Shown here piece after piece: positions 17,029 to 59,221 of a stretch of 64,000 bases of DNA. The notes under the pieces were generated by a model. It saw only the letters and a list, made by a program, of their open reading frames with translations, was not told the origin of the DNA and searched no databases. A program made the position numbers and the translations under genes. Source of the stretch: Candidatus Poribacteria bacterium. Its GTDB lineage: Bacteria > Poribacteria > WGA-4E > JAJDTR01. The DNA lies in assembly GCA_965222225.1 (NCBI GenBank), contig CBDCTK010000002.1, positions 1,184,001 through 1,248,000 of the forward strand, in the 5' to 3' direction. Numbering within the stretch: position 1 is the first letter of the stretch; every line of letters begins with the position of its first letter.

Positions 17029-17062
17029 ATCAAGCGAACGGATAGTGAGTGCGATAGAGATC
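17029..17062 (+). repeat. 34-bp variable-slot unit inside a GTAG-type hairpin
   Basis: ATCAA GC GA AC GGAT A GT GA GT GCGATAG AG ATC between GTAGGCGGGG and CCCCGC. Confidence 0.85.
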
Positions 17063-17342
17063 TTCTTGCCCCGCATTGGTAAGATTTGATTAACGCTATT
17101 AATGCACTTCAAATATAGAGAAATGGCATTAATAACCTAGAAAACCGTTACTAAATACGTGGCTTCCCGAATTGACATAGCGGGCTCAAGGCCTAGAGTT
17201 GCGATTTAATCCTAAGTTGCCCGGTATTTTTCATCAGACCTTCAAAGCCCAGTGTGTTGATAAATACGAAATGGCACTTCGGGGTTACAATCTCAGTCTT
17301 CCCTCGTTTCCCCTATGTACAAATTGAGCTAATAAGAGAGAA

Positions 17343-17843
17343 TTGTATCAGATGAACGCGGATGAAAAACAGGCAAAAGAGGAGGCACTGTTGTATTGGC
17401 AGGAGGCGCTAGAGTATCAAATGCGCGGGGAATTAGCCGATGCAATTGAGCTATACCTGAAATCTATCCAACTTCATCCCACTGCCGAAGCACACACCTA
17501 TCTCGGTTGGGCGTATTCTATGATGGGACGAATCCATGACGCGATTGATGAGTGCAAAGAAGCCATCGCAATCGATCCCGATTTCGGCAACCCATACAAC
17601 GACATCGGCGCATCTCTGATAGAACTCGGTGAACACGATGCGGCGATACCTTGGCTTGAGAAAGCGATTGTCGCTCCCCGGTATGAGGCACGGGCGCACC
17701 CCTTCATGAACCTTGGGCGGGTTTTTGAACACCGATTCGAGTGGTCGAAAGCCATTGCAAGTTACAGACGGGCGTTGGAGGAAAGTCCCGATTACAAAAT
17801 AGCGCTTGTAGCGATGAAGAAACTGCAAGCGAAGCTGAATTGA
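17343..17843 (+). CDS. TPR protein
   Basis: PTAEAHTYLGWAYS..G....AI.EC..AI.IDPDFGNPYNDIG. Confidence 0.9.
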   Translation: MYQMNADEKQAKEEALLYWQEALEYQMRGELADAIELYLKSIQLHPTAEAHTYLGWAYSMMGRIHDAIDECKEAIAIDPDFGNPYNDIGASLIELGEHDAAIPWLEKAIVAPRYEARAHPFMNLGRVFEHRFEWSKAIASYRRALEESPDYKIALVAMKKLQAKLN

Positions 17844-18037
17844 ACCCGCCTCTAGAACTCACCGCTAATAGCTTCTGACAGAATCAGTTTAAGTCTGAGA
17901 GCAGGGCAACCAATACTTCGTCCCAGAAGTGTCGTACAACTAATTATATTCCCACCATAGCACAGGTTAACGTGACCCCGTTGCACGGTGCCACCGCATC
18001 GCCAAATAATACTTTTTCCCCACGAAGAGACAACGCC

Positions 18038-19621
18038 ATGAACGCAAAAATAAAGGGTTGTGCCGATGCTCCCAAAACTCGGGCGTTTGCCGACCGTAAG
18101 CGAGAGCGCCATCCTACTTTCGAGCCAGAGGCATTCCGCCAACTAACCGGCACCGACCTAATTGCGTCGAAGATTGGCTACGGCTCCTACCGCGTTGACC
18201 ACCGATTCGATGAACATACAGCAACCCTTCACAAAGCGATTCAAGCCGGCTGTAATCTAATTGATACTTCAAGCAACTACACCGATGGAGGCAGCGAAAC
18301 GTTGATTGGGAATGTCTTGAGCGAACAGATTTCGGCAGGGAAAATTGAGCGAAGCGAGATTGTCGTTGTTTCGAAGGTTGGCTACATTCAGGGGCAGAAT
18401 CTAGACGAAGCAATGCGGCGTGAAGGAGATGGAGAACCTTGGGAAGAGGTTGTCAAGTACATGGATGGGTGTTGGCATTGTATTCACCCCGATTTCCTTG
18501 CGGATCAGTGGAGGCGTAGTTCGGACCGGCTGCAGCTCGAGACTATCGACATTTACCTGCTGCATAATCCGGAATACTTTCTCTCGGATTCGCACAAACG
18601 AAGCCCTCGCGCTAATCTTGATGAGATTCGGGACATCTTTTATGATCGTATTTGCCGTGCATTCGTACAAATGGAACAATTCGTGGAGGAGGGTAAAATT
18701 CGTTACTATGGCATATCATCCAACACCTTCCCTTCGCCAAAAGGGGACTTTGAACACGTTTCCCTCCAGCGCTGTTATGACGCCGCTTGCGACGCGGCGA
18801 GAAGGGCACATGGTACTCAAGGTGAGAACTACTTCAAAATTCTCCAACTCCCGTATAATCTTTTTGAACATACCGCGTTATCGGAGTTCAACAACACAAT
18901 CAATGGAAATGATATGACGGTGCTTGAGGGGGCAAAAGCACTTGGGATTGGTGTGTTGGTGAATCGTCCACTCAATGCTGTGAAAGGCAATCAGATGGTA
19001 CGTCTAGCACAGTATCCTCACAATCCTGAGCTTGATTATCAGGATGCAATTGACAATGAGGTCCGAGCGCTTGATAAGACGGAAAATCGGTTGCAAATGA
19101 CGTTGAAGGATTGGGGGATTTTTTCTCAATTGAGCACGTCGGCTAACTCGACGCTGTTTTATGACCTCGCACAAAAGCTGCCTAGATTCATGCCCCAAAT
19201 TCAAAACCGAGACCACTGGGAGCAAATTGCTCAACAATACCTGATTCCCCTGATTCACACCTATCTGGGCCAAACGATTGAAGCATGCCCAGATACTCGT
19301 CAAGCCGAGTGGCGAGACATGCAGGGGGAATATGTCGGAGCAATTAATAGGTTGCTTTCACTCGTCTCGGGTAATTTCAATCGCATGGCATCAGTGCAGA
19401 TGGAACCGATCTCAAAGGCATTGAATCAATTGCTGGCAAACCAAGAAAGAAAGCTAACCTTATCGCAAAAAGCGCTGAACTTTGTCACTTCATCGCCAGG
19501 GGTGTCGGTGGTGTTGAACGGGATGAAACGCGGCGAATATGTCGCCGATGCCATGGGGTTACTGAGCATTCCGGCTTTTACACAGTCAGTCGAGAACCTG
19601 ATAAAAGCCATTGAAGAATGA
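18038..19621 (+). CDS. Aldo/keto reductase family protein with helical insertion
   Basis: IGYGSYR, LIDTSSNYTDGGSE, VVVSKVGY, IYLLHNPE, GKIRYYGISSN. Confidence 0.88.
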   Translation: MNAKIKGCADAPKTRAFADRKRERHPTFEPEAFRQLTGTDLIASKIGYGSYRVDHRFDEHTATLHKAIQAGCNLIDTSSNYTDGGSETLIGNVLSEQISAGKIERSEIVVVSKVGYIQGQNLDEAMRREGDGEPWEEVVKYMDGCWHCIHPDFLADQWRRSSDRLQLETIDIYLLHNPEYFLSDSHKRSPRANLDEIRDIFYDRICRAFVQMEQFVEEGKIRYYGISSNTFPSPKGDFEHVSLQRCYDAACDAARRAHGTQGENYFKILQLPYNLFEHTALSEFNNTINGNDMTVLEGAKALGIGVLVNRPLNAVKGNQMVRLAQYPHNPELDYQDAIDNEVRALDKTENRLQMTLKDWGIFSQLSTSANSTLFYDLAQKLPRFMPQIQNRDHWEQIAQQYLIPLIHTYLGQTIEACPDTRQAEWRDMQGEYVGAINRLLSLVSGNFNRMASVQMEPISKALNQLLANQERKLTLSQKALNFVTSSPGVSVVLNGMKRGEYVADAMGLLSIPAFTQSVENLIKAIEE

Positions 19622-19900
19622 GACGTTAGCTCACCACCATCAGCTTGTCGTCTTTGATGTTTCAATGGGCGTCTACGAGATTCATTTCCTAATCAACATT
19701 CTGAAGAGCGGACTGAAAAATAAAGTATCAATCAAATTAGACGAGATGTTTACGCCGACAATAGAACGGGGATGCCTCCAGACCGTGCGATGAACACTGG
19801 AAACACGGCGGTAGCACTCACTGACGCGATGAAATACGGGTTGAAACTTGATTGATGAGGCATCCAATCTTAATGAAAATCAAGAAAGATAAAAACATTA

Positions 19901-21149
19901 GGGACTTAGTAGTTAACTGCTTTTTGGTCGATTTGCTTGCTTTTCTCTTCTTAATGTACAATCATTTTAGACAGTGTTCGGAATCTTGATTCACACTAAA
20001 ATACATCTCTATAAGAGAGAAATGGAGGCATATCATGTTGACCAAGCGTTTGTACATGCTCGCGGGAGCATTGCGGGTTATCTGCGGGATTTTAATTTCC
20101 AACACTATGGGATTTTCAGCACACCATGATGTTGTCGTTGACAGAATATACCGATAGCCAAACAATTCATGTGGCTCAGGTGAAGCATTCATCAAAAAAT
20201 CTTATGAAAATCTCATCATCTTTTCTGCGATTATATTTCCAGCAAGACTCCATGATATACAGTGGCAGCCACTTCTTGCTGTAGTGATGATGCGTTCCGT
20301 AGAATGACCTCTTGACACAAGCCCAAAACGACTCGATGGTGTTGGTGTGAGTTACGCCGTCCTCAGAAACATATCTCTCTTGGTGATGGATAACATGTCT
20401 TTCGATATCTTCGTCCAGACTATTGTAAGAGCGAAATTCATCAGTCATAAGAATAGACTCATCGGGTGAGACATTGCTAAGGATGAATTCTCTGATATTT
20501 TCACCAGATAGAACCTTCATGAATTTAGCAACCACCCGACCGCCTCTCTCGACTACGCCGATGACGGGAGATTTATTTGTGCCTCTACCTCTCTTAGATT
20601 TTGCTCTGGGTTTGCCGCCGACATAGGTTTCGTCCGCTTCAACTATCCCTTTCAGCAATTCATCACTATCACTCATTTTCTCACGGAGGCGCATTGCCAT
20701 ATACCAAGCGGACTTTTGATTCATGTCCAAGTCACGAGCAAGCTGACAACTCGATATGCTTTTCTTGGCATTGGAAAGAATTGAGATAGCCAAAAACCAT
20801 TTCTGGAGAGGTATCTTGGTACCATGGAAGATGGTTCCTGCTGTAGCCGAAAAGCTAGATTCACAATCGTAGCAATTCCAACCAGTAGTAATGTCGTTTT
20901 TGTTCTTGCGTCCAACTTTTTCACTGCCACAGTGGATACAGCAAACACCGTCCTTCCAACGTTTTTCCTCTATAAATCTGAGACAAGATTCTTGATTTGG
21001 AAACTCTTTCATAAGATTCAAAATGTCCATAGCAAACTCCTACGAGAAGAATAGTCACTATGGACATCTACGTGTGACGAAAAGATTTACGACAGGGTAC
21101 CAAGTTTTATGTTTGTCGTCAGTCTAAAAGCTACAAGCTACTAATTCCG
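19901..21149 (-). mobile_element. IS1595-family insertion sequence, complete
   Basis: Imperfect 24-bp terminal IRs; 8-bp TSD AAACATTA at 19893-19900 and 21150-21157. Confidence 0.92.
20176..21030 (-). CDS. IS1595-family DDE transposase
   Basis: Zn ribbon CIHC..CYDC, HTH, VEADETYVGG, LMTDE, HTNTIESFW. Confidence 0.95.
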   Translation of the reverse strand: MDILNLMKEFPNQESCLRFIEEKRWKDGVCCIHCGSEKVGRKNKNDITTGWNCYDCESSFSATAGTIFHGTKIPLQKWFLAISILSNAKKSISSCQLARDLDMNQKSAWYMAMRLREKMSDSDELLKGIVEADETYVGGKPRAKSKRGRGTNKSPVIGVVERGGRVVAKFMKVLSGENIREFILSNVSPDESILMTDEFRSYNSLDEDIERHVIHHQERYVSEDGVTHTNTIESFWACVKRSFYGTHHHYSKKWLPLYIMESCWKYNRRKDDEIFIRFFDECFT

Positions 21150-21975: not shown

Positions 21976-23883
21976 GTGCAAACGACGAATGTTCAAGTAA
22001 ACTCCATGTTTGGTAATGATGTGCAGTACATAATTCCTCTTTTTCAGCGACACTACGTCTGGGGTCAGGCAGGACAGTGGACACCTTTGTGGAAGGATAT
22101 AAAGGACAAGGCTTACCATAGGCTGTCTGAATCTCAAAGAGATCAGTTCTCTCATTTTACGGGTGCTATCGTCATACAGCAAAAACAGACTAATGTGGAC
22201 GAAGTACAAAAATACGAAATTATTGACGGACAGCAGCGCCTAACAACCTTTCAGGTCATCCTTTGCGCTATCAGAGATGTATGCAATTCATGCGGATTTG
22301 AGAAAATTGGGGCGGAGGCAGTTCGACACATGCTAAATCAAGGAACACTGTTAGACAACTCAGACAGTGAGAAATACAAACTTCTCCCGACAGAGTTTGA
22401 TAGGGCTCCATTCATCTCATTGACTGATGGGCGTGTAGATGAGAGCAGCGGACGAATTTGTATAGCCTATAATTATTTTAAGAAAGAAATCGAAGATTAT
22501 GTGAACCGTGATAGGAACAAGACGCTTGCCCTGTTTCGCTCTATCTTAAACGACTTTGGTTTTGTCCAGATACTGCTTGATGCAGGGGACGAGCCCGAGA
22601 GAATTTTTGAATCGCTCAATGCAAGGGCTAAACCTCTACTTCAATTTGATTTGCTCAGGAACAATCTGTTTCTAAGGGCTCGAATTGAAGAAGGTAGAGA
22701 TAGGCTATATGAAGACTATTGGAAGCATTTCGAAAGTACGTACTGGGAAAAAGAAGTAACGGTTGGGAGAGAGAAGATGATGCTTTCTGAACGATTTTTC
22801 CAACACTATCTTATGGCAAGACTCGGTGAGGTGAGCGTTAGCCCACTGTTTAGTGTATATCAAGAACGGCTTGCACAAAACGAGGGAGTCGAACAAGAAC
22901 TGTCAGCGCTAAAACAATATTCAGAGATTTATCAAGAAATGACAGATTGCTCCCCTGATTCCGAAATTGGGCAGGCGATGTCATTTTACAATACCTTTGA
23001 TATTACCTCTTTGCACCCATTTATACTTTTCGCGATAAATGAGTTAAGAGTGTCTGGCTCAGATCTCTCCTTAGTTTTCCAGATTTTAGAGTCTTATACC
23101 ATGCGTCGTCTACTGTGTAACACATCAGGCGCTAAGAACTATAACAGACTCTTTTCTAAATTGATTCAGAGGCTGAAAGGAAGGCGTTTTGACGTGGGGC
23201 AATTCTTAAAGTTGCTATCTGATGAAAAGGCACACTCGAATTGGTGGCCGAGTAATCGTGAGGTTTCCAATACTATGTGCTGGATTACGGATACAAAGGC
23301 TAATCGTTACATTTTGTATCGGATTGAATTAAAGAAACGAGTAGAGAACCAATCGCTTGAAAGCAACGAGTTGGACTTTAACAACCCGCTGAGTTTAGAA
23401 CATATAATGCCCCAAAAATGGGAGAACACATGGTCTTTACCGCTGCTGGCGGATGGCGACCCTCCTGACTTGAATCCTCTGTATGATTGCAAGGAGAGAA
23501 TTCTTTACAAGAACTTATTTCATAATGAATACCGCGAGAATAACCCAGAATGGAAAACGAACCCGTTAGAGGAGGGATTGGCTGACGAATCGTACAAATC
23601 AGCACTGATGGTCGCAGGATTCAGACGTGAGGATTTACACCACTTTGGTAACCTAACGCTTGTCACAGGATCACTTAATTCCAGTCTGTCAAACAGACCA
23701 TTTTCTGAGAAGAAATCGGGGTTATTTCAAAACTCACTGCTGGTTTTGAACAGAGAAATTTGTGAGTACGATACCTGGGATATTCCGCAAATCGCACATC
23801 GTACGAGCGACTTGTGTAACTATTTCTACTCAATATGGCCATCTGCGGAGAGTTTTGCGGAAAGCATTGGAGAACCATTATAG
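21976..23883 (+). CDS. DUF262+DUF1524 GmrSD-like type IV restriction endonuclease
   Basis: IPLFQRHYVW, IIDGQQRLTT, IFESLNARAKPL, SLEHIMPQ, GNLTLV..SLNSSLSN. Confidence 0.9.
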   Translation: MQTTNVQVNSMFGNDVQYIIPLFQRHYVWGQAGQWTPLWKDIKDKAYHRLSESQRDQFSHFTGAIVIQQKQTNVDEVQKYEIIDGQQRLTTFQVILCAIRDVCNSCGFEKIGAEAVRHMLNQGTLLDNSDSEKYKLLPTEFDRAPFISLTDGRVDESSGRICIAYNYFKKEIEDYVNRDRNKTLALFRSILNDFGFVQILLDAGDEPERIFESLNARAKPLLQFDLLRNNLFLRARIEEGRDRLYEDYWKHFESTYWEKEVTVGREKMMLSERFFQHYLMARLGEVSVSPLFSVYQERLAQNEGVEQELSALKQYSEIYQEMTDCSPDSEIGQAMSFYNTFDITSLHPFILFAINELRVSGSDLSLVFQILESYTMRRLLCNTSGAKNYNRLFSKLIQRLKGRRFDVGQFLKLLSDEKAHSNWWPSNREVSNTMCWITDTKANRYILYRIELKKRVENQSLESNELDFNNPLSLEHIMPQKWENTWSLPLLADGDPPDLNPLYDCKERILYKNLFHNEYRENNPEWKTNPLEEGLADESYKSALMVAGFRREDLHHFGNLTLVTGSLNSSLSNRPFSEKKSGLFQNSLLVLNREICEYDTWDIPQIAHRTSDLCNYFYSIWPSAESFAESIGEPL

Positions 23884-27838: not shown

Positions 27839-27872
27839 ATCAACCGAGCGGATAGCGAGGGCGATAGTCATC
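27839..27872 (+). repeat. 34-bp variable-slot unit
   Basis: ATCAA CC GA GC GGAT A GC GA GG GCGATAG TC ATC. Confidence 0.85.
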
Positions 27873-27950
27873 CTTGAGCTGGTGACACAACGTGCGGCGG
27901 GAATACTGACAGGTCAAACTGCCAATCGCTTAGCCAATAAGGAGATACAA

Positions 27951-35687: not shown

Positions 35688-35788
35688 TATTGTGCCGTCT
35701 CCATTCGATTCATTCTGTCTCCAAAGAGACCTAAAACTACTGTCTACCGCAGAGGTGATAACTTGCGTTGTACTCTCCTCTCGACTTA

Positions 35789-36111
35789 GAGCCTGTTTGA
35801 ATAATCGGTGGCAAAGCCATTTTTGGTCATTTGTAGAAAGTTTTTTCATGTTTTCATTGTTGGCTGCTACATACCTGTCACTATTCTATCGCACTCACTA
35901 TTCGCTCCCTTGATCCCACGCTGGGGCTTTTAGAGGCTGGTAGGATTTCTATCGCGCTCCCTAGAAGATCTCTATCAGGATTTACTATCGCCTTCGCTAT
36001 TCGCTCAGTTGATCCCTCGCTGTTCACTCGGTTGATCGCAGGGGATCTCTATCGCAGTCATTTTTCATTCCTTTGATCGCACCCTACAAACTGTACTTTT
36101 CAAACAGGCTC
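35789..36111. mobile_element. MITE copy 1, IS5-family-like (IS1031-type ends), 323 bp
   Basis: 13-bp TIR GAGCCTGTTTGAA/TTCAAACAGGCTC; TTA duplicated (35786-35788, 36112-36114); sits at the stop codon of the porV-like gene. Confidence 0.9.
35881..36077 (-). repeat. Cluster of variable-slot units inside MITE 1 (3 full, several partial)
   Basis: Full units 35881-35914, 35979-36013, 36044-36077; partial 35944-35962, 36015-36036. Confidence 0.85.
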
Positions 36112-37200
36112 TTAGAACCGAAGCATTAACTCAAAAACATTTAACCGTTTTCCTTCGGGACCCCGCGGCACTTCTACAGCGTAGTCAAATTGGTAGTCAA
36201 GCAATCTCACACCTAGACCATACGTTAGATGGTCCGAAAAATTCAGCAAGTCTATCCCCGGTTCCGTTTTGTAACCAACGCGCAATGCAAGGAGATTACC
36301 AAGCCAATACTCGGCGCCGATACTTTTCCGTAGATGCCTCCATTCAAGGGCGCGAATGCCAACACCCCGATTCGAAAGCACATCACTACGCGTTTCGTCA
36401 GGAAAGTCAGCCAAGCGTCTTTCTATCTCCTCTTCATCCTCTGTCAATTTATGGATAGATGCCGTCAAATCTCCAATGAGGTTGACCCGATGATTCGTTT
36501 CTTCGTAGAGTACCACTGCCGTCCCCATCTTGAATTTGCGAGGAAGAGGGTCGCTCTGATTCTCATCTATGAAGTGCAGACGCGTGCCCCAGTTCTGGAG
36601 GGCAGCGCCAATCTTGACTGGCACAAATGCATTCAACAAATCGTACTGCAATCCGAAATCAACGGCGTAAGCGCCCCCGCTCTCCCGTCCTAACTTCTGT
36701 CTGATAATCTTGCCATTCATGCCAGCAGAAAGCCGATCTGTCACTTGGTCTGCGTATGAAAACGTCAATACCCAATTCGTCCCGAGGTTTTCCTCTCTAA
36801 TCGGATTGGGAGAATCTGTTGTCACCAAGATGGTTCCTTGTCCTTCAAGCTGAAGCGTCGCTCCAAGGATGCCGACATCGCTAATCGGCATAGCTCCGGC
36901 AAAAAATGCATAGTACAATCCTTCGCCAGCTTCGCCGAAAATGTCCCCTTGGTTTTTGTACGAAATAGCCACCTGTTTCTCTTGAATAATTCCCAATCCA
37001 CTGGGATTCCATAAAGCGCTAGTCACATCGCCATCAACAGCAGTGAAGGCATCGCCCAATGCTGTCGCACGCGTCCCGCCGCCGAGATCGAGAATTTGAG
37101 AGCCTTGGGTGCCCGGTCCCGCCAATCCTGATGGTGGAGGCGAGATTATCGCCACAACCAAGACTATGTTAATTGCCAATATTAGGTTTACTCGCTGCAT
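36112..37200 (-). CDS. PorV/PorQ-family outer-membrane beta-barrel
   Basis: Signal peptide, GTRATALGDAFTAV..D...LWNPSGL, SDPLP, GAEYW..LALRVGY, terminal F. Confidence 0.85.
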   Translation of the reverse strand: MQRVNLILAINIVLVVAIISPPPSGLAGPGTQGSQILDLGGGTRATALGDAFTAVDGDVTSALWNPSGLGIIQEKQVAISYKNQGDIFGEAGEGLYYAFFAGAMPISDVGILGATLQLEGQGTILVTTDSPNPIREENLGTNWVLTFSYADQVTDRLSAGMNGKIIRQKLGRESGGAYAVDFGLQYDLLNAFVPVKIGAALQNWGTRLHFIDENQSDPLPRKFKMGTAVVLYEETNHRVNLIGDLTASIHKLTEDEEEIERRLADFPDETRSDVLSNRGVGIRALEWRHLRKSIGAEYWLGNLLALRVGYKTEPGIDLLNFSDHLTYGLGVRLLDYQFDYAVEVPRGPEGKRLNVFELMLRF

Positions 37201-40009: not shown

Positions 40010-41551
40010 ATGAAACATTATCGAAATAATATTCTCGCAGTTGTTTCCGGGATTTTGCTAGTCTTGAGTCACCCCAGTTTTAACCTGTTCCCGCTCGCAT
40101 GGGTAGGATTGGTGCCGCTGTTAATAGCCATAAAGTCTGTCTCAAACGCGAAATCTGCCTTCCGGATAGGATATATTTCGGGATTGACGTTCTTCGCGGG
40201 GCTCCTCTACTGGATTGTCCTGCTCTATCCGTTTGCACACATCTTTGTAACCGTGCTGGGCTATGTCGCTCTCGTCGCTTACGCCGCCCTTTACTTTGCC
40301 GTCTTTGCCCTAGTTGTGCACCAATTGCCGCGTAAATCCGGGATATCCTTCATTTTTCCGACAGCACTGTTTTGGACGGGGTTGGAGTGGATTAGGAGTT
40401 GGCTACTGACAGGCTTCCCATGGGGCAGTATGGGATACTCGCAGTGGAACAATCATGCCGGAATTCAAATTGCCTCGATTACCGGAGTTTACGGCGTCAG
40501 CTTTGTTGTCGTGCTCTTCAACGCGGCAATCGCATATCTAATCATCTCGTCTTCCAACTGGCGAAGAGCAACCAAGAGTGTTGCATTTCCAATCGCCATT
40601 GTGGCACTCACGTTCGTTTACGGTGCATTTTGTTTGTCCGATTCCGGAAACTCGGTAGCGCACGTTAAACTCGCGCTTGTTCCCGGCAATGTCTCGCAAG
40701 CCGAGAAGTGGAAATCGGAACACGCCCCGAAGATTTTCAGGCGATATATCAGTTTAACCGAACAGACGAATGCCGCTAACCCGGATATAATTGTCTGGCC
40801 CGAAACTGCGATTCACCCCCAAATACTATCCGGGCAGGCGGAATCCTACAGGCAGCGTTTATTCGAGATGCTGCGAGAGCATCAAACCTATCTGCTCGCC
40901 GGTGCCGCCGTGCGAGAGGCTGATAAGAAGTTCTATAATAGCGTTTTTCTTCTCTCCCCGGCGGGTGAGAAGCTTGGCAGCTATTCCAAGATGCACCTCG
41001 TGCCCTTCGGGGAATACGTGCCGTTCTCCAGCGCTCTCCCAAACTTCATCCAATTTGAGACCTTCGCACCCGGGAAGTCAATTAACCTACTACCGCTCGC
41101 CAGCATAAAGGATGCCAAAGTCGGTATTGCGATCTGTTTCGAGTCCGTGTTCCCCAATCTCTTTCGCAAGTTCGTAGCGAAAGGCGCGGACATCATGGGA
41201 ATCTTGACCAACGATGCTTGGTTTGTAGGCACAACGGCGCCTGCCCAACACCTATCCGCCGCGCCGTTCCGTGCCGTCGAAAACCGCATCTCCGTTTTCC
41301 GCTGCGCCAACGGAGGAATCTCCTGCATAATAGATCCGTTCGGGAGGATAGTGAGCCAGACTATCACCCCGACCCAACCTGATGGCGTTCTGGTAGAAGA
41401 CGTCCCTTTGAAAAATCATCAGAACACGAAACAAACGCTATACACCCGCTACGGCGATTGGTTTCCAATCCTATGTCTGCTGGCAAGCCTCGTACTAATT
41501 GGTCATAGGAACCGAACGCGGATCCACTCCAAACTCAGGCGGTACACCTGA
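40010..41551 (+). CDS. lnt: Apolipoprotein N-acyltransferase
   Basis: GFPWG..GYSQ, VWPETA, KMHLVPFGEYVP, ICFES, TNDAWF, RAVEN, TLYTRYGDW. Confidence 0.96.
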   Translation: MKHYRNNILAVVSGILLVLSHPSFNLFPLAWVGLVPLLIAIKSVSNAKSAFRIGYISGLTFFAGLLYWIVLLYPFAHIFVTVLGYVALVAYAALYFAVFALVVHQLPRKSGISFIFPTALFWTGLEWIRSWLLTGFPWGSMGYSQWNNHAGIQIASITGVYGVSFVVVLFNAAIAYLIISSSNWRRATKSVAFPIAIVALTFVYGAFCLSDSGNSVAHVKLALVPGNVSQAEKWKSEHAPKIFRRYISLTEQTNAANPDIIVWPETAIHPQILSGQAESYRQRLFEMLREHQTYLLAGAAVREADKKFYNSVFLLSPAGEKLGSYSKMHLVPFGEYVPFSSALPNFIQFETFAPGKSINLLPLASIKDAKVGIAICFESVFPNLFRKFVAKGADIMGILTNDAWFVGTTAPAQHLSAAPFRAVENRISVFRCANGGISCIIDPFGRIVSQTITPTQPDGVLVEDVPLKNHQNTKQTLYTRYGDWFPILCLLASLVLIGHRNRTRIHSKLRRYT

Positions 41552-41713
41552 AGCATCACTGGATTCCCCGCACACATGTAAGAGCCCTCGCCTGATGGCG
41601 CACTTCATTTTGCTCTTTTATTTGCACATCAACACTTTTTTGCGTTACAATTCCCATGATGTTTCACAAGACAGTACTCTTCAATTCCGAATAACAAAAG
41701 GACGTTTCTCGCC

Positions 41714-42016
41714 ATGTTTATCCAAACCCCAGACGGTACGCTTGTGAACCTAAATCAAGTAGGCGGAATCAAAATTATCAAAGAGGAAGCAGCTCGTACT
41801 TATCCTACCAGATTTGGACACAGCCTCTATGCTATCCTTCCAGCCGGTATGGGTATAGTTGCACCTGAACCCCTTGAACAACACCATATACTTTTGGTAA
41901 GCGGACGGGATTACGACCAATGCATTTACGTCCTTAACGACATAAAAAAACATCTTGAATCGAAAGATTCGTTTATGGTGTTAAAGTGTCCTGATCCACA
42001 ACAATCGACACCTTAA
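41714..42016 (+). CDS. Hypothetical protein
   Basis: 100-aa ORF preceded by a TTGCAC..TACAAT promoter-like sequence and AAGGA. Confidence 0.6.
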   Translation: MFIQTPDGTLVNLNQVGGIKIIKEEAARTYPTRFGHSLYAILPAGMGIVAPEPLEQHHILLVSGRDYDQCIYVLNDIKKHLESKDSFMVLKCPDPQQSTP

Positions 42017-42106
42017 AACAGGGCACGGATAACATTTCTGCAATAATCCTTTTCGGAAGCACAAGGAATTTATGTAACTCCAATCGAAATGAAAGGACAT
42101 CGGACA

Positions 42107-42517
42107 ATGAAAGAAACTTTGGAGTTGTTCCTAACACCGGGAGTATTGGCCCTCGGAATAGCGATGCTGGCAATCATGTTCCGCATGACTCACAAACGAA
42201 TTGATGATTTGCGCTCCCAGATGGTGTCCGACCATAACCATCTTTCCGAAAAACTGGAAGTTATCGATCACAGGTTGTCTGAAAAGATTGACGCTGTCGA
42301 TAAGAGGCTGTTTGAAAAGATTGACGCCGTTGATAAGAGGCTGTCTGACAAGATTGACGCTGCTGATAAGAGGCTGTCAGGAATGATTAATACCCTTGAC
42401 CAGCAAATACACGGTATGAATCAAAGAATTGACACATTCAACAATCAGTTTGCCGCACATTTGGAATCGCACCGTTTTACCAACACACATAATCGCGCTA
42501 ACGGCGTTCGTCAATGA
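42107..42517 (+). CDS. Membrane-anchored coiled-coil protein with 11-aa tandem repeats
   Basis: N-terminal TM; about 4.5 copies of LSEKIDAVDKR (33-bp period, 42242-42390). Confidence 0.8.
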   Translation: MKETLELFLTPGVLALGIAMLAIMFRMTHKRIDDLRSQMVSDHNHLSEKLEVIDHRLSEKIDAVDKRLFEKIDAVDKRLSDKIDAADKRLSGMINTLDQQIHGMNQRIDTFNNQFAAHLESHRFTNTHNRANGVRQ

Positions 42518-42639
42518 ACGCAGCACGATAGACGAGATTCCATAAGCAGAAAAATTTTACTAACTACTTCCCAGAGAAGAACCGTTCCACCGCGCCCCGT
42601 TCCGCCAGTTCTGCTTTCGTATAATGAGCCGGCATAGCG

Positions 42640-42986
42640 GGCACCTTCCCAACACCTATCCGCCGCGCCCTTCCGTGCCGTCGAAAACCGTATCTCCGTT
42701 TTCCGCTGTGCGAACTGAGGCATCTCCTGCATAATCGATCCGTTCGGGAGGATAGTAAGCCAGACTATCACCCCGACCCAACCTGATGGCGTTCTGGTAG
42801 AAGACGTACCGTTGAAAAATCATCATAGCGCGAAACAAACGCTATACACCCGCTACGGCGATTGGTTTCCAATCCTATGTCTGCTGGCAGGCCTCGTACT
42901 AATTGGTCATAGAGGAACCGAACGTGGATCCACTCCAAACTCAGGCGGTACACCTGAAGCATCACTGGATTCCCCACACACATGTA
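42640..42986 (+). pseudogene. Duplicated, inactivated 3' end of lnt
   Basis: Direct repeat of 41236-41580 with GGA>TGA and a 2-nt insertion. Confidence 0.9.
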
Positions 42987-43142
42987 GGAGCGATCTCCTG
43001 ATCGTGGACAAGTCAATTCGAGACCTGAAACTCTCCGATTTTACCTTCTCTTTTAGTTATTGAACCGGTCTCTAATCGTCCACTTGCAAGCGACGCCCTG
43101 CACCGTCTTTTTACAGAACACTTCCTTCAATACCAAGACGGA

Positions 43143-43176
43143 ATCAAGCGAACAGGCAGTGAATGCGATAGTGACT
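43143..43176 (+). repeat. 34-bp variable-slot unit
   Basis: ATCAA GC GA AC AGGC A GT GA AT GCGATAG TG ACT. Confidence 0.75.
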
Positions 43177-43559
43177 CCCGTGCGAGATTGTCAGTCTCTC
43201 ATCAACGATTAGTCTTGTCCTAATATTGACGAATTTGGGGAATCAAACATGTGTTCTGCGCTTTAGAAGGTATTACACAAACGTATCTCAATTCCCTCTC
43301 GTGTCAGGCGCAAGATACGGATGCGATTGCCGCATCCGGTACCCGAGAAAAAGTTGCGAAAACGGGGCGGCAATGTTAACATTCTATCAATGATTAACGT
43401 TTCAGAGTTTTCAGAGTAGGCGTGAGAAATATAGCTAGACAGAAAACGGCGAAAGTCCATGCCAGGACTGATGTCTCGGCGGTTTCACAAGACGGGTACT
43501 CGGAATGATACTCTGAAACGGGGGCGATTTTTAATGCTGGTTCTGGCGTAATACGGAGG

Positions 43560-45606: not shown

Positions 45607-45656
45607 ATGTGACGGCAAAGCGTAGTCATCCGAGGTGACAGTCGTACATAACCTAA

Positions 45657-45890
45657 GAGCCTGTTTGAATAATCGGTGGTAAAGCCATTTTTGGTCATTT
45701 GTAGAAAGTTTTTTCATGTTTTCATTGTTGGCTGCTACATACCTGTCACTATTCTATCGCACTCACTATTCGATCGCTTGATCCCACGCTGGGGCTTTTA
45801 GCGGCTGGTAGGATTTCTATGGGATTTCTATCGCACTCGTTATCCACTCGTTTGATCGCACCCTACAAACTGTACTTTTCAAACAGGCTC
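45657..45890. mobile_element. MITE copy 2 (same family as 35789-36111), 234 bp
   Basis: Same TIRs; TAA duplicated (45654-45656, 45891-45893); variable-slot units at 45749-45782 and 45823-45856. Confidence 0.9.
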
Positions 45891-48905: not shown

Positions 48906-50180
48906 ATGCGCATCCAAAGACCCCGCTTCCCCTGCTCTCCACTCATCGCCGCCGCCATCGTTATCCTACTTACCATTGGCTTCACCGTTCCGTGCGCCCA
49001 CGCTTCGGGCCCGTGGGTCGAGGTTAAATCACCGGGCGAATTGGATGTCGGAATCATTCATTTTATCGATGCCGAAATCGGTTGGGCTGTGGGGTCAGAT
49101 TTTATACTCCGCACCGCAGATGGGGGACACAATTGGCACCGGCATGAAAGGCCTGACGACCTTCCTCGCTGGACGAAGGATTTTTCTTCTCCGACGACGG
49201 GATGGAGCCTAACCGAGTGGCGCCATCAGAATTCCCCCATGTTGCTTGAAGACATCGAGTTCATTCAAACTACCGATGGCGGCTTAACATGGCAACCAAA
49301 GCGCGGGAAGGTTACCGAGTTGGTTCTCATTGGAGATGAGACGCCTCACCCTGACCGACCCCTTGCGGACAACGTAAGGCTTAAACAAGTCGGAATCTAT
49401 TTTTTTGATGATCAGTTTGGGTGGATTGTCGGACCCACGGGCAATTGGGTCTGGCGCCACGACTGGCTTGGGGATCCGATCGGGAATTTATTAGCAGGCA
49501 ATTACCTATGTTCTACTCGTGACGGCGGCGAGTCGTGGAAGTGCCAGATTCATATCTATCTCTCGCGCAAACAAGGACACTTCAATATTGATGAATATTT
49601 GAGAATGCCCGAACATGTATATTTTCTCAATCCTCAGGTAGGGTGGATCGCGCCAGCCACCGGTTGGATGTATCACACAACGAATGACGGCACGGATTGG
49701 GAAGTGGTAGGTCACCCACTTGCGGGAGTCATGCCGGTCCTGCCCCGTGAGCGCTTTCTTACTAAACTCAAATTCGTTGATGAATCTCGCGGCTGGGCGG
49801 GCACTACATGGGCTGGCACTCCAGAAAGTGCATGGTTCACCGCAGACGGAGGACGGACATGGAGCATAAAATTTAGAGGCCTGAGTGGTGTCCTTTATGC
49901 CAACAAAGATGGTGTGTGGCTGCCAGGCTATAGGTGGTCTCCTACTGGCGAGACAATTCGAGGGATTTTCTATTCGGCGGATGATGGAGACACCTGGGAA
50001 CTGGAATGGGAAGGTCCCCAACGCATATATGTCATCGTATACAATGAAGCGACGCAATCCCTCTGGGCGGGCGGAGAAGGCATAATTCTTCATAAGAACT
50101 TGCAAACAGCCGTCGCGCCGCAAGGTAAACTGACTACTCTCTGGGGAAAACTCAAAGACGCTCCCGACTCCAACCCGTAG
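48906..50180 (+). CDS. Exported BNR/YCF48-like beta-propeller protein with C-terminal TxWGxLK motif
   Basis: Repeated F.D...GW and T.DGG.TW units; ends AVAPQGKLTTLWGKLK. Confidence 0.88.
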   Translation: MRIQRPRFPCSPLIAAAIVILLTIGFTVPCAHASGPWVEVKSPGELDVGIIHFIDAEIGWAVGSDFILRTADGGHNWHRHERPDDLPRWTKDFSSPTTGWSLTEWRHQNSPMLLEDIEFIQTTDGGLTWQPKRGKVTELVLIGDETPHPDRPLADNVRLKQVGIYFFDDQFGWIVGPTGNWVWRHDWLGDPIGNLLAGNYLCSTRDGGESWKCQIHIYLSRKQGHFNIDEYLRMPEHVYFLNPQVGWIAPATGWMYHTTNDGTDWEVVGHPLAGVMPVLPRERFLTKLKFVDESRGWAGTTWAGTPESAWFTADGGRTWSIKFRGLSGVLYANKDGVWLPGYRWSPTGETIRGIFYSADDGDTWELEWEGPQRIYVIVYNEATQSLWAGGEGIILHKNLQTAVAPQGKLTTLWGKLKDAPDSNP

Positions 50181-50244
50181 GTTAGGATCAAGCGACTGAT
50201 TAAGGAGCGCGATAGAAATCTCAGAGAGCACAGCGAAACCCAAC
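50177..50244 (+). repeat. Same REP as 48714 with a variable-slot unit (50187-50220) inside; partial unit at 50339-50361
   Basis: GTAGGTTAGG[ATCAA...ATC]TCAGA-GAGCACAGCGAAACCCAAC. Confidence 0.85.
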
Positions 50245-53653: not shown

Positions 53654-53664
53654 GGAGATTTATC

Positions 53665-55590: not shown

Positions 55591-55642
55591 GGATACCTCG
55601 TGTGTCGCGGGTGTGTTTGCCCTTGTATTCCGTTTGCATCCG

Positions 55643-55738
55643 ATTAAGCGAGTGGATAGCAATCAAGGGAACGGATAGTGACCGATCAACTGAGTGGATA
55701 ACGAAGGCGTTAGGGATCTTATAGCGACTGCGATAGAG
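55643..55738 (+). repeat. Head-to-tail array of partial and full variable-slot units
   Basis: Truncated units at 55643 and 55662, full unit 55685-55718, 3'-half unit 55721-55738. Confidence 0.8.
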
Positions 55739-55977
55739 CACCCCCTCCCATAGAAGTTTCATCGCTCCGATAGCCCCAAAATAAAACCATCCAAACGACC
55801 GCCCTGCAATCTCGACTGGCAAAATGGGCCTCCGTTATGTTACAATACGCCACGTTGAAATCCTGTCGACCTGACCGTATTCCTCAGATATTCTACCTCA
55901 AATCCCCAATCTGAGCGATAGCGGAAGTTCAATCACCTCGCCATCAAACGTATCATCTCACTAAAGGAGGTATAACT

Positions 55978-56415
55978 GTGATCGAGTCAATCTGGGTAGA
56001 ACAGCGTCACATAGACGAAGGTGTCCCTCGCAACCTAAGCGACTGCGCAATCGCCCGTGCATTCTACGAAGCCACCGGTCTCCCGACAGTGGCGCATCCC
56101 AACATCATACGGATATTCTACGCCAAGGAGTTAATGGACCATTATCTCGCGGGTAACGAGGAGATGCGTCCGTATTGGCTAAAAGATTCCTGCGCCTACA
56201 ATGCGTCCCCTGCGGTAGGGAGCTGGATAAAGTCGTTCGATAGAAACAAGCCTTCTGTGCCTCCGCTCTATTTATGGTACGATTATCGGACCGGTAGATT
56301 AGAGACTGATTACATTCCACCAGCTATGAGGCGTTTTGAGAATGAGAAGGAAATGCTCAAGGGCACCGAGATAACCAAATCGGTCAAAGCCGGTACCAAT
56401 GCCGAATTGACCTAG
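55978..56415 (+). CDS. Hypothetical phage-like protein
   Basis: AAAGGAGG RBS; I.V...HIDEG....C.IA.A...WI.SFDR pattern. Confidence 0.7.
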   Translation: MIESIWVEQRHIDEGVPRNLSDCAIARAFYEATGLPTVAHPNIIRIFYAKELMDHYLAGNEEMRPYWLKDSCAYNASPAVGSWIKSFDRNKPSVPPLYLWYDYRTGRLETDYIPPAMRRFENEKEMLKGTEITKSVKAGTNAELT

Positions 56416-56433
56416 AAATCTTCTGTTTAAGTC

Positions 56434-56652
56434 GTAGGGTGCTATCAGTCGGCCGAATAGTGATTAGGATTTTCTATCCTAACCTATCCGCTCAGTTAAT
56501 CGATAGCGAACCCAACTCAATAGGAAATTCAGTCGATAGTTGTAGGTGCGCATTGCAATCAAACGACTGGACAGGGAGTAAGATTTCCTATCGCCTTCGC
56601 TCAGTTGATCGATAGAGTTCCCATAGAGATCCCACCAGCCTTTGAAAACCCT
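56434..56652. repeat. Mixed-orientation cluster of degenerate variable-slot units within GTAG repeats
   Basis: Units at 56444(+), about 56468-56500(-), 56558-56579(+), 56582-56609(-); flanks GTAGGGTGC and ACCAGCC match the MITE interior. Confidence 0.7.
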
Positions 56653-56815
56653 AACGCCAGAACAGGATAGGGGTGTAAAACCAGAAACCACCTCGCTCCG
56701 CATTGGGTTATTCGACTCCGGTTGAACTTGGGCAGCAGAACTTGCCTTGGTTTTCCTTATTTGTGATCTAGAGTAGCGTTAGCGCTTCATCGTGACATGG
56801 AAAGGAGTTTATACC

Positions 56816-57433
56816 GTGAAGATACTGGTTATCAGTTCTTGCACAAGCGATAAGCTAGATTGTGAAGCCTCCGCTGCAAAGATGTATACCGGACTTCAAC
56901 ATAGGTATTTAATGGAAGGATTGGAAAAGGTGCGGAACAGCTTTGGAGAACAAGCTATTGATTTAGCAATTATCTCCGCGAAGTATGGTTTGCTCAGTGA
57001 ATGCGATGTTATAGCTCCTTACAATTGTACATTTCCAGGTCTTAAGAAAAAGGAAGTCTTGGAGCGCAGTGACAGCCTTCATCTTCATGAACGGACGAAG
57101 GCGTTAATTACGCGCTATGATTTGGTTTTCTTTTTATTGGGTAAAGAGTACGTCCAAGCGTTGCAACTCCCTTTTGATGTTCCGGATACGGTTGCTCAGA
57201 TTTTTCTGCTCGGCCCAATAAATAGGAAGCTGATTCCTAATTTGCCAAATGTCTATTTTATTCCAGCTGGCAGAGATTTAGCGAAAACACTCGGTGTCAT
57301 GATAACTGCCCTTAAAGGAGTCATGTTTAAAAAATTGTGTTGCGTTGTATGTCGTGAGGGATTAGAGGTCTTTGAAATGATTAGGCAGGATCCACAGCTA
57401 GTCCTTGAGTTGGTGCATGATGGAGAGGGGTAA
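56816..57433 (+). CDS. DUF6884-like (YaaA-related) protein
   Basis: LVISSCT..K....A..MYTG, IISAKYGLL....I.PYN; AAGGAG RBS. Confidence 0.75.
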   Translation: MKILVISSCTSDKLDCEASAAKMYTGLQHRYLMEGLEKVRNSFGEQAIDLAIISAKYGLLSECDVIAPYNCTFPGLKKKEVLERSDSLHLHERTKALITRYDLVFFLLGKEYVQALQLPFDVPDTVAQIFLLGPINRKLIPNLPNVYFIPAGRDLAKTLGVMITALKGVMFKKLCCVVCREGLEVFEMIRQDPQLVLELVHDGEG

Positions 57434-57805
57434 AGCGTTGGGCTTTACTTGGTAACGCTTGATAGCCACGCAATGAAAGCGAAGTTTGTCTTAACTTCGA
57501 TGGTACTTGAGAATACATACATTAATCCACCGTCCATGACAACACCCATCGGGGTCTTGTTCTCGCTAATGGTTCGGTTGCCCCGTCATCCCCAAAGCCC
57601 ATTTCTACTACGAACGCGCAGGTCTTTAGAACCGAGAGCTCACCCACTGTTGGGCGGTGTACAACCACTGCGACACGCCACTGGTAATAGCGCTGCCTCG
57701 GGAGGTACAAGGCTTTGCCTTCGAGTCCGCACGCGGCCTGGCAGGGTTGCTCACAATTTAGTTTATTTTTGAGCCGACTAGACATTATTCCAAGAGGTGG
57801 TACTC

Positions 57806-58276
57806 ATGACTGAAGACCAATCCCAAAGCCGGTTATCCTACGGTAGAAGGCACGAATATATTGTAATAGCGGAATTGCTGCGACACGGATTTGATGTTTA
57901 CATACCTTTGGTGGATGACCGGCAGATTGACTGTATCATCCGGCGTGGCGACGACCACTATATTGACTTGCAACTTAAAGCGAGATCTAGGGATGGTAAC
58001 TTCGCTGCGATGAACATTGCCTGCCCTAGAAAAAATTACTTCTTCGTCTTCTATGTTGAGAGCATAAAAACTCGCTGGATTTTCCCCTCTCGCGATCTTG
58101 TTGAGGCAGCGAACCAAGACCGGACGGGAAGAAATACAGGAAAATTTAACATTTACCTCACTAGTCGTAGTGGTGGGGAAGTACGCCCCTCGCAAACATT
58201 CGACGAGTATATAGACTTCTCCGAATACTTAGGCATAGACAGAGAATTTGAACGCCTGCGAGGCCCCAAAGAATGA
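57806..58276 (+). CDS. PD-(D/E)xK endonuclease-fold protein
   Basis: E.IVIAELL..G.DVY.P.VDD..ID.I...IDLQLKAR. Confidence 0.8.
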   Translation: MTEDQSQSRLSYGRRHEYIVIAELLRHGFDVYIPLVDDRQIDCIIRRGDDHYIDLQLKARSRDGNFAAMNIACPRKNYFFVFYVESIKTRWIFPSRDLVEAANQDRTGRNTGKFNIYLTSRSGGEVRPSQTFDEYIDFSEYLGIDREFERLRGPKE

Positions 58277-58545
58277 ATACAGGAGAACGTTTGTATGCAG
58301 TAATAAGCGGCTGCGTTTGCGTCATACTCGCCCTTGTCCTCTGCTCCTTCTTACCTCTCGGCGTTCAAAGCCAATCCGATAAATTAAGCGAAATCACATG
58401 TACTGCGCTTAGGGTGGTCAATAATCGGGGGGATGAAGTGGTTCGACTGCTGGCTGGCGAATACGGAGGACTCATAGGGATCTACGAGGAAAATGGGCAA
58501 CACGCACAAACAGCATTGGTAACTAAAGAAGGCGAGTCATTTTGA
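58273..58545 (+). CDS. Truncated exported protein of the 'EI.C..L.VV' family
   Basis: Signal peptide then SEITCTALRVV; overlaps a convergent gene. Confidence 0.55.
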   Translation: MNTGERLYAVISGCVCVILALVLCSFLPLGVQSQSDKLSEITCTALRVVNNRGDEVVRLLAGEYGGLIGIYEENGQHAQTALVTKEGESF

Positions 58546-58731
58546 AGATAGATTTTTCTCAATTAGACCATTTACAGAGTTTATCAATGCGGTAAGCGCA
58601 GGAGTTACCGCGACTTGATGAAGACGGATTTCGGAAATTTCTTCCCCTATATTGGCAATATTAGTTTCGATGGTTTTAAGACGCTTATCAAGTTCTTCGC
58701 CGACAATGCGACGCAGACTTTCTTCGTTCAT
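58537..58731 (-). CDS. Small coiled-coil hypothetical protein
   Basis: AAGGA RBS; ATGA overlap with the upstream ORF. Confidence 0.6.
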   Translation of the reverse strand: MNEESLRRIVGEELDKRLKTIETNIANIGEEISEIRLHQVAVTPALTALINSVNGLIEKNLSSK

Positions 58732-58997
58732 GGTGAATGTCCTTTGCCCTTTTGCGTAGGTGGTGGGGCCGTCGTTGGATACTCCAGTAGGAAATAATTG
58801 CTATTTATAACTAGCCCGCGTTGTTTAAACAGAGCGCCCTGGAAAACGCCCTCTGTTTTTAGAACACGGGTAGCTTTTTCCAAATCGTCAAAAAAAGCAT
58901 TTCCACTCAACAACTTGGATTCAAACTCAAGGATTACCCCCTCGCGCTTACGGAGATACTCGTTCACGCGATGGAATTGTTCTAAAGCTGTATTCAA
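58728..58997 (-). CDS. Hypothetical protein
   Basis: AAGGAG RBS before TTG. Confidence 0.55.
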   Translation of the reverse strand: MNTALEQFHRVNEYLRKREGVILEFESKLLSGNAFFDDLEKATRVLKTEGVFQGALFKQRGLVINSNYFLLEYPTTAPPPTQKGKGHSP

Positions 58998-59187
58998 GCT
59001 ACTCCTTTGACGAGTTTCAGGATTTGATTATCACAATAGCGTTTTTTATAAGAAAACTTCGCGACAGAAAACCGACTTGTACCATTTCTCTAAAATTCAA
59101 GTGCATTGATTACAGTGGATCAAGTAAAGAAATCTGTGCGGAGAGAAGTAAGAAGCCGTATCTCCGCGCAAAGCAGGCGGGCAGGGG

Positions 59188-59221
59188 AATCTCTATCGCA
59201 CTCCCTGTTCGGTCATTTGAT
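59188..59221 (-). repeat. 34-bp variable-slot unit inside a GTAG hairpin downstream of katG
   Basis: Minus strand GTAGGGCAG...ATCAA AT GA CC GAAC A GG GA GT GCGATAG AG ATT...CTGCCC. Confidence 0.85.

Follow-up and report, generated by a model that had tools for sequence, protein, structure and literature searches.

A 64-kb stretch of the genome of a Candidatus Poribacteria bacterium, an uncultivated sponge symbiont, was analysed as a whole and is referred to here as the window. Its genes include a weak sub-threshold PorV-like match, a DUF5916 gene, a catalase-peroxidase-type peroxidase gene and a GmrSD endonuclease gene, and scattered through it are copies of a short repeat (hereafter the unit), in which a fixed scaffold between the ends ATCAA and GCGATAG is interspersed with four variable dinucleotide slots. 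A preceding sequence-only reading of the window had listed 11 full copies, no two of them identical. A scan with the family pattern, allowing up to two mismatches and with 100 shuffles as control, gave 11 matches at these places compared with 0.04 expected; none of the shuffles reached 11, and pairwise comparison confirmed that the 11 copies are mutually different. The minus-strand starts given in that reading fall 5-6 nt below the 29-nt core, as part of the 3' tail was included.

The host genome (G000; 5.70 Mb in two contigs, the main contig C2 being 5.6 Mb) contains 949 matches with at most one mismatch and none to the reversed pattern, and a relaxed scan, with two substitutions allowed among the 21 fixed positions, yields 1096 copies (727, 234 and 135 with 0, 1 and 2 mismatches, respectively). 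Because conservation would otherwise be judged on positions selected for, the detection was repeated with the end anchors alone (ATCAA, 17 free bases, GCGATAG), giving 812 matches versus 1 for the reversed anchors. In this anchors-only set the internal scaffold positions G8, A9, G12, A16, G19 and A20 are 94.5-98.6% conserved and the eight slot positions have entropies of 1.05-1.58 bits, so that the slots are more variable than the scaffold genome-wide, as the earlier reading had proposed. Its rule that each slot reads not-T and then not-A is exact for the window (43 of 44 slots) and extends to 4262 of 4384 slots across the genome. Judged by a gene proxy based on open reading frames (ORFs), which covers 81% of C2, 896 of the 1093 copies on this contig lie outside genes, 157 lie inside and 40 overlap. 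The statement that all copies are intergenic therefore holds against credible genes; several window copies overlap ORFs of 100-130 aa, which are probably spurious. No neighbouring copy lies within 500 bp for 471 of the 1093 copies. The density of units along C2 is very uneven, at 14-89 copies per 250 kb.

Slot pairing and the folding strand

The slots are not independent of one another: slots 1 and 4 are reverse complements, as are slots 2 and 3. Among the 44 slot pairs of the window, 35 are Watson-Crick, 6 are wobble and 3 are other combinations. In the 1096 copies of the genome, the pairs 6:22, 7:21, 10:18 and 11:17 are Watson-Crick in 748, 959, 987 and 879 copies, with mutual information of 0.77, 0.96, 1.15 and 0.43 bits, respectively, compared with no more than 0.26 bits for any other combination of two slot positions. 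A second covariation tool was applied to 58 copies from six genomes of the window's genus, genus 1 (the window, the rest of its genome and five congeners), and from three genomes of a second carrier genus, genus 4. Paired cells amount to 95.0%, versus 76.1% in shuffles (0 of 500 as high), double-sided changes to 85 versus 26.5, and the covariation score to 0.58 versus 0.20; when the 3' partners are slid by 1-3 columns, pairing drops to 17-47% and the score to 0.12 or less. Three of the four pair types are present at each of three positions, together with G:T intermediates.

The copies conform to a 27-nt hairpin, in which an invariant ATC (1-3) faces an invariant GAT (25-27) and 2-bp Watson-Crick steps are set between fixed non-canonical oppositions. 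In the model, the foot consists of A1-T27, T2-A26 and C3-G25, followed by the oppositions A4.C24 and A5.G23; the stem consists of N6-N22 and N7-N21, the tandem G8.A20/A9.G19, and N10-N18 and N11-N17; and at the apex G12.A16 closes an R-A-T loop. The hairpin is followed on its 3' side by AG and a 6-nt tail (ARATCC). The unit is thus almost certainly an imperfect hairpin with a stem of 2-bp steps and, between them, invariant purine-purine mismatches. The sequence-only reading had described the element as not palindromic, which was mistaken, since it is an imperfect palindrome with reverse-complementary slots, and had ascribed the 11-bp recurrence of A-nn-GA-nn-G to one helical turn, where the two occurrences are instead the two arms of the hairpin.

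The slot rule also finds an explanation in this structure. Immediately 5' of the mismatched Gs, at positions 7, 11, 18 and 22, an A is found in 7, 28, 13 and 34 of the 1096 copies, and because these positions are almost never A, their slot partners are almost never T. The preferred context of tandem sheared G.A pairs is 5'-pyrimidine-GA-purine-3', and we infer a sheared geometry for the mismatches of the unit. Wobble pairs read on the ATCAA...GCGATAG strand are distributed asymmetrically, with 477 G:T and T:G compared with 106 A:C and C:A in the 1096 copies. As units occur in both chromosomal orientations, this asymmetry reflects selection for the folding of one strand only, namely ATCAA...GCGATAG. 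The alternative offered in the sequence-only reading, a duplex protein-binding site from which thymine methyls are excluded, leaves both the reverse-complement covariation and the 477:106 excess unexplained. With RNA nearest-neighbour parameters, the mean energy of the model structure is -2.64 kcal/mol for the top strand and +2.05 kcal/mol for the bottom strand, chimeras of arms taken from different copies average +2.68 kcal/mol, and in 709 of the 1096 copies the fold of lowest energy is identical to the model.

Unit boundaries, insertion sites and orientation

The family logo shows a G before position 1 in 953 of the 1096 copies and the tail A-R-A-T-C-C after GCGATAG, with no conservation outside positions -4 to +37. 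The extent of the unit was examined by joining the flanks of each copy at all plausible boundaries and seeking the joined 22-mer elsewhere in the genome. The cleanest class of empty sites is obtained by removal of 35 nt (ATCAA...GCGATAG and the 6-nt tail). Its empty counterparts are GTAGGGTGCGCACTGCG^CACCAGCC, with 36 empty copies, GTAGGTCGGG^CTTCYAGCCCGACC (begins CTTC..), GTAGGGGCGAGG^TCCCCTCGCCC (begins TCCC..) and GCCCCAGCGGGGC^GACAGG, the last seen against a congener. In these four different host palindromes the insert has equal length, 35 nt, and is accompanied by neither target duplication nor inverted ends. Nested copies also have exact empty counterparts, the self-nesting sites lying after G23 or after A20 of the host unit. 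Nesting at G23 leaves 23-nt truncated heads (for an example in the window, see Table 1), and tandem arrays with periods of 23, 38 and 41 nt are found. Furthermore, 38 distinct 35-mers are identical in at least two unrelated flank contexts. Together these results make it very probable that the unit is a discrete mobile entity of 35 nt.

The hosts include at least four other families of hairpin repeats of the repetitive extragenic palindromic (REP) class. The pentamer GTAGG is present within 28 nt upstream of 285 of the 1096 copies, compared with 34 copies that have CCTAC downstream and 6-30 for control pentamers; it directly abuts the unit in 25 copies, and where a GTAG tag is present near the unit, the tag belongs to the host REP. 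One composite of a REP termed REP-D and the unit is present in 72 copies. Among neighbouring units no more than 200 bp apart, 240 pairs have the same orientation and 56 have opposite orientations, and no inverted spacing within this distance is favoured. Public pre-assembled contigs end at these repeats, and the joints that they contain (e.g. 35877>35967) are short-sided cross-repeat matches; neither locus-specific insertion or excision nor RNA ends could be read from such contigs.

The check for strand or replichore bias suggested in the sequence-only reading revealed a strong dependence on GC skew, calculated in 50-kb windows with units masked. Where the local skew is positive there are 191 plus and 330 minus copies, and where it is negative 418 plus and 154 minus copies (odds ratio 0.21). 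Thinning to a single copy per 2-kb cluster (n=540) leaves an odds ratio of 0.28; the copies are not independent, and p-values for this bias overstate its significance. The skew sign follows the gene-strand bias, as expected of leading strands, and the leading strand was assigned from these two features rather than from a mapped origin, the skew sign changing many times along C2. With this assignment, about 63-73% of copies have their folded strand on the C-rich strand, which serves as the leading-strand template. The bias is common to all four REP families tested in the genome (odds ratios 0.11-0.32). Where the neighbouring genes are co-directional, the folded strand has the sense orientation 326 times and the antisense orientation 279 times. 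This near-neutral orientation of a strand-specific fold argues against a role at the transcript level. In 250-kb bins the GC skew of C2 changes sign about eight times over 5.6 Mb, reflecting many rearrangements or assembly joins.

Distribution, candidate enzymes and interpretation

The unit was sought in 176 genomes of the phylum. It is present in all ten genomes of genus 1, at 688-1401 copies each, and in all four genomes of genus 4, which belongs to another family, at 219-231 copies. Among the other genomes, one (G066) has 21 copies and the rest have at most five. The 21 copies in G066 and the four in G010 are located on four small contigs each, and may represent binning carry-over and thus no evidence of presence. 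No exact match was found in a viral contig collection. A search of Rfam 15 gave no match at the gathering score over the window, and none at E values up to 1 on 35700-36200, and literature searches on Poribacteria repeats and on REP and hairpin topics, including REP-associated tyrosine transposases (RAYTs), found no published description of DNA repeats of Poribacteria, so that the family also appears undescribed, as had been supposed. An origin from cyanobacteria, with their palindrome HIP1, was suggested by GCGATC-like ends and rejected, HIP1 not being enriched in the genome (120 compared with about 87 expected).

The search for an enzyme that might move the unit focused on Y1 transposases of the HUH superfamily, of which the host genome contains at least seven loci (five PF01797 matches and two more found by protein search). 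The best PF01797 match is an intact 157-aa IS200-like gene (C2:3080255-3080728), with a score of 65.8 bits against the NCBIfam model transpos_IS200 (cut-off 55) and 30.6 bits against REP_Tyr_transpos (cut-off 80). In this genome the gene lies between inverted units. Its homologues at about 40 Poribacteria loci are flanked by a different, classical repeat, GCCCCAGMGGGGCGACAGGTGTATAG (REP-A), only 4 of 80 IS200-like loci have a unit within 1.5 kb, and the downstream unit at the gene in G000 is an insertion inside a GCCCCAGMGGGGCGACAGGTGTATAG repeat. More generally, the units adjoining three Y1 loci are explained by nesting in those loci's own repeats.

The IS200-like Y1 gene is conserved across Poribacteria (loci L014-L058), with GCCCCAGMGGGGCGACAGGTGTATAG upstream, often in several tandem copies, and its reverse complement downstream. 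The hairpin of this repeat covaries in distant homologues (e.g. GCTCCAGCGGAGCGATATGTTTATAG), and gene and repeat together constitute an undescribed REPtron-like system of the IS200-like clade. Several IS200-like genes of genus 1 carry stop codons. At least four further Y1/RAYT types have repeats of their own (GTAGGAGCGATCTCYAGGTCGCGA, GTAGGTTGGGTTGAACG, GTAGGGTGCGCACYGCGCACCAGCC and a CAAACTGTTAGTTTGCG-type hairpin; loci in Table 1), and in G000 several of them are no longer intact, being interrupted by a stop codon, shortened at the N-terminus or truncated at a unit. G000 (C2:2563965-2564705) and its congener G005 (C1:3780663-3781403), whose housekeeping genes are about 85% identical, encode a 247-aa RAYT-like protein with 99% identity between the two. 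The full-length protein is found in no other genome of 41, G009 containing an 85-residue C-terminal fragment that is 93% identical, and it looks like a recent transfer.

Other enzyme families were also examined in G000. There were no matches to TnpB (PF07282) and none to Y2 (PF04986), for which the control also matched nowhere. Five matches to GIY-YIG genes were obtained, none with close units on both sides. A single weak reverse transcriptase-like match to RVT_1 (27.5 bits) is about 2.5 kb from the nearest copy. Sets of genes between inverted units number 68, and a Pfam scan of 20 of the 26 tightest found PhyH, SDR, GFO/IDH, rhodanese and similar domains, or no Pfam domain. Several paralogues encoding PhyH (phytanoyl-CoA dioxygenase) lie individually between inverted units (C2:2038980-2043238 and 2254155-2255006).

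In its anatomy the unit resembles the REPs of REP/RAYT systems, being an imperfect palindrome of 20-40 nt that can fold as a single strand, is present in hundreds of mostly extragenic copies, and has conserved stem mismatches together with stem positions that vary yet remain complementary. As described in passages of PMC3333891, TnpAREP of E. coli acts on single-stranded DNA only, requires a stem mismatch (which is needed for binding), cleaves with low specificity and carries out strand transfer. By analogy, a strand-specific single-strand chemistry may apply to the unit as well. Parts of PMC6006769 describe atypical, weakly structured repeats without GTAG for some Y1 classes, and parts of PMC3733652 report REPs inside other palindromes and GA mismatches in REP stems. 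Unlike typical REPs, the foot of the unit's hairpin lacks a conserved GT[AG]G or CGTC tag in most copies, its 2-bp steps are set between fixed purine-purine mismatches, and it colonises other REP families. Unlike in a REPtron, no Y1 gene is flanked by inverted units as its own repeat or shares the unit's phyletic distribution, and unlike REPINs, the unit does not form inverted doublets at a fixed short spacing.

Insertion sequences of the IS200/IS605 family share with the unit the lack of terminal inverted repeats and target duplication, insertion beside a short target, strand-specific recognition of a hairpin and an orientation linked to replication. The unit differs in its length of 35 nt and in having a single hairpin rather than distinct left and right ones, and no full-length insertion sequence with these ends and no TnpB was found. 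Miniature derivatives of IS200/IS605 are known as palindrome-associated transposable elements (PATEs). The small dispersed repeat (SDR) elements of Nostocaceae, mentioned in a passage of PMC5861425, are likewise very small, dispersed and noncoding with an unknown mover, and reportedly insert into HIP1, itself an iterated palindrome; they differ from the unit in phylum and sequence. Hairpin repeats in hundreds of copies, recognised in single-stranded form by a protein of their own, are also represented by the Ssn-related motifs (NTS/dRS3). According to sections of PMC11893778, NTS has a CGTC tag, is a near-perfect palindrome and flanks its own nuclease gene, whereas no GIY-YIG gene is flanked by the unit. 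A classical miniature inverted-repeat transposable element (MITE), moved by a DDE transposase, would have the terminal inverted repeats and target-site duplication that the unit lacks, and unlike the repeats of a CRISPR array, the units differ from one another and their arrays of 23-41-nt period have no spacers.

We therefore file the unit as a REP variant rather than as a REPtron, a REPIN or an IS200/IS605 derivative, since the defining features of each of these were tested and found wanting. On balance, we lean towards the unit being an orphan, REP-class, non-autonomous mobile element of single-stranded DNA, which a Y1 transposase probably moves in trans; the term orphan is used because no Y1 gene is flanked by the unit as its own repeat or shares its distribution, and no candidate emerged from the other families examined. 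The participation of a Y1 enzyme as the driver is proposed tentatively. In this proposal, the fixed bases (mismatches, loop and ends) would be the part that is read; that a protein encoded outside the window reads the scaffold is almost certain, as the sequence-only reading, with RAYT/HUH as a candidate, had supposed. The Watson-Crick steps would be needed for shape alone and would have drifted, in the course of a long copying history, by compensatory changes that passed through G:T intermediates. Such drift would give rise to the appearance of a fixed scaffold with variable slots and make a randomising polymerase unnecessary. The unit would insert precisely 3' of a G, without target duplication or terminal inverted repeats, with a preference for the GTAG strand of other REP hairpins, close to their top or foot, and for the positions after G23 or A20 of its own copies. 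Such behaviour would be as expected of the single-strand chemistry of a Y1 (RAYT or IS200-like) transposase, which might proceed by 'peel-and-paste' or by strand transfer at replication forks. Unusual features of the unit are the stem of 2-bp steps between fixed purine-purine mismatches, its precise boundaries, its systematic insertion into other REP families as well as into its own copies, and the lack of a cognate transposase gene.

Several observations weigh against this interpretation. None of the seven Y1 loci of G000 is flanked by the unit as its own repeat: at five a different repeat takes this place, which at the four that are not IS200-like is GTAG-tagged or of another kind, and at the other two (L010 and L012) none was characterised. 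The IS200-like type is present in 9 of 9 genus-1 genomes, in 2 of 4 genus-4 genomes and in 7 of 7 genomes of genus 6, which is free of the unit, while the other Y1 types are sporadic, so that no Y1 type matches the unit's distribution. The folded strand lies mostly on the leading-strand template, opposite to the rule for IS608 and ISDra2, whose active strand is on the lagging-strand template (passages of PMC3333891); this could mean counter-selection of hairpins on the lagging-strand template, their preferential loss from it, or a different chemistry. The insertion boundaries vary, with classes in which 23, 25, 35, 36, 38 or 41 nt are removed, part of which may arise from slippage or recombination among repeats. 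With DNA nearest-neighbour parameters, applied to three copies, the top strand reaches only -0.9 to -2.0 kcal/mol, no better than shuffles, and one of the three has the model itself as its minimum-energy fold; given such marginal energies, stabilisation by a protein or by unmodelled G.A stacking may be needed. Finally, no presence or absence of a single unit at a truly orthologous site was found between species, because the intergenic DNA between them is too diverged: genes are about 82-90% identical between congeners, and the intergenic DNA does not align. Thirteen joined-flank matches considered as orthologous empty sites all proved to be paralogous repeats.

The same anatomy and mobility could be combined with a different mover, a so far unrecognised single-strand nuclease or recombinase outside PF01797 that is common to both carrier genera. 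The failure of any Y1 type to co-occur with the unit or to have it as its own repeat, and the reversal of the IS608 orientation, point in this direction, and GIY-YIG Ssn proteins are known from sections of PMC11893778 to pair with hairpin repeats. We consider such a mover unlikely, since no candidate emerged among the GIY-YIG matches, TnpB or the 20 tightly flanked genes (nor from Y2, for which the control was itself silent), and insertion on the GTAG strand of REPs fits RAYT chemistry. Another possibility is that the unit has no mobility of its own, and travels as a passenger of REPs and composites, multiplied further by slippage or unequal recombination in arrays. In its favour are the more than 60 occurrences of unit-bearing composites of 150-330 bp, the 72-copy REP-D composite and the 23-, 38- and 41-nt arrays. 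The identical 35-nt boundaries in four unrelated host repeats, the 471 of 1093 copies without another within 500 bp, the lack of conservation beyond -4 to +37 and the 38 identical 35-mers in unrelated flanks make it highly improbable that this is all.

Alternatively, the unit might be kept for the benefit of the host as a DNA or RNA motif (a site for a nucleoid or replication protein, a terminator or an mRNA stabiliser), its spread being secondary. The strong conservation of the scaffold would fit such a role, as would a slightly higher density in convergent than in divergent intergenic regions (0.98 compared with 0.71 per kb), and an RNA library (X16) contains the repeats, at a level indistinguishable from DNA carry-over. 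We nevertheless regard this as very unlikely: gene orientation is near neutral for a fold that is strand-specific, making a family-wide RNA role unlikely, there is no Rfam match, the positions of units differ between species at syntenic loci, and nesting in other repeats and in one another would be needless for a functional site. The remaining proposal, made in the sequence-only reading, was that an error-prone reverse transcriptase or other polymerase writes randomised dinucleotides into a fixed template. High slot entropy and the one weak reverse transcriptase-like ORF are what can be said for it. It is scarcely conceivable in view of the covariation, which shows the slots to be paired rather than random, with pair types and G:T intermediates as in stepwise compensatory change; moreover, that ORF has no copy nearer than about 2.5 kb, and there is no A-specific mutation pattern.

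Returning to the orphan mobile element that we favour, a bolder version would see it as a hyperparasite of REP-RAYT systems and among the smallest self-defined mobile DNAs, recognised through its G.A-zipper single-strand fold and not through its sequence. It would enter the extruded hairpins of other REPs and of its own copies, and its mover would be an enzyme family new to hairpin repeats or several promiscuous non-cognate RAYTs. We think this rather unlikely. If it were true, the roughly 10,000 natural variants across the genus would amount to a deep mutational scan of the enzyme's recognition code. The spread of REPs and their recognition by transposases are still argued from a few proteobacterial models, and here a single genome of an uncultivated sponge symbiont holds several REP/Y1 pairs together with an orphan element. 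Its approximately 1000 copies separate the positions that are fixed (mismatches, loop and ends) from those that need pairing alone, which can guide the design of oligonucleotides for binding and cleavage assays, and the repeat-in-repeat insertions form a natural record of target choice. For assembly and binning, the breakage of public contigs at these repeats is a practical warning.

Features of the window

The units of the window and related features are listed in Table 1. A composite block containing three units is absent at the orthologous site in four congeners, where the same genes are 20-45 bp apart, and its modules of 150-330 bp recur more than 60 times in the genome. Viewed as a MITE-like composite repeat, it is represented in the window at 35787-36111 and 45653-45820, with a 170-bp module that is 97% identical between both sites.

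Table 1. Positions of units, associated repeats and further Y1/RAYT genes (window coordinates unless a contig is named)
Feature	Position	Strand	Remarks
35-nt unit	17029..17063	+	29-nt core and 6-nt tail AGATCT; flanked by GTAGGCGGGG and CTTGCCCCGC, which form the arms of another hairpin with a GTAG tag
35-nt unit	27839..27873	+	nearest-neighbour minimum-energy fold equals the inferred structure
35-nt unit	35880..35914	-	at foot of REP-A hairpin (GCCCCAGCGTGGG^...^GACAGGTATGTAG); exact empty counterpart present in congener
35-nt unit	35979..36013	-	nested within another unit
23-nt 5' part (ATCAA..nnG) of split host unit	36014..36036	-	3' remainder (TGATAGAGATCT) at about 35964-35975
35-nt unit	36043..36077	-	within REP-D hairpin (GTAGGGTGCG^...)
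35-nt unit	43143..43177	+	degenerate loop (AGGCA)
35-nt unit	45748..45782	-	REP-A context; belongs to ~170-bp module, 97% identical to 35785-35952
35-nt unit	45822..45856	-	
35-nt unit	50187..50221	+	begins 7 nt past stop of ORF 48906-50180
35-nt unit	55685..55719	+	one scaffold mismatch (GCGTTAG)
35-nt unit	59187..59221	-	abuts start of congener-conserved block (59222 onward, catalase-peroxidase gene)
Composite ~325-bp repeat block	35787..36111	.	three units with REP-A and REP-D pieces; inverted ends tagagcctgtttgaa / ttcaaacaggctc
Further Y1/RAYT loci	G000 C2:3088793-3089350; 1545570-1545977; 3560265-3560543; 3836069-3836929; L137-L150		

The GmrSD-type (DUF262/DUF1524) restriction endonuclease gene is located at 21976-23883, in a stretch of lower GC content (0.43); the syntenic blocks of four of five congeners do not include this part of the window. 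Parts of 41042-43041 have matches at two or three sites within the region of the congener G005 that is syntenic with the window, suggesting a local duplication of a gene fragment.

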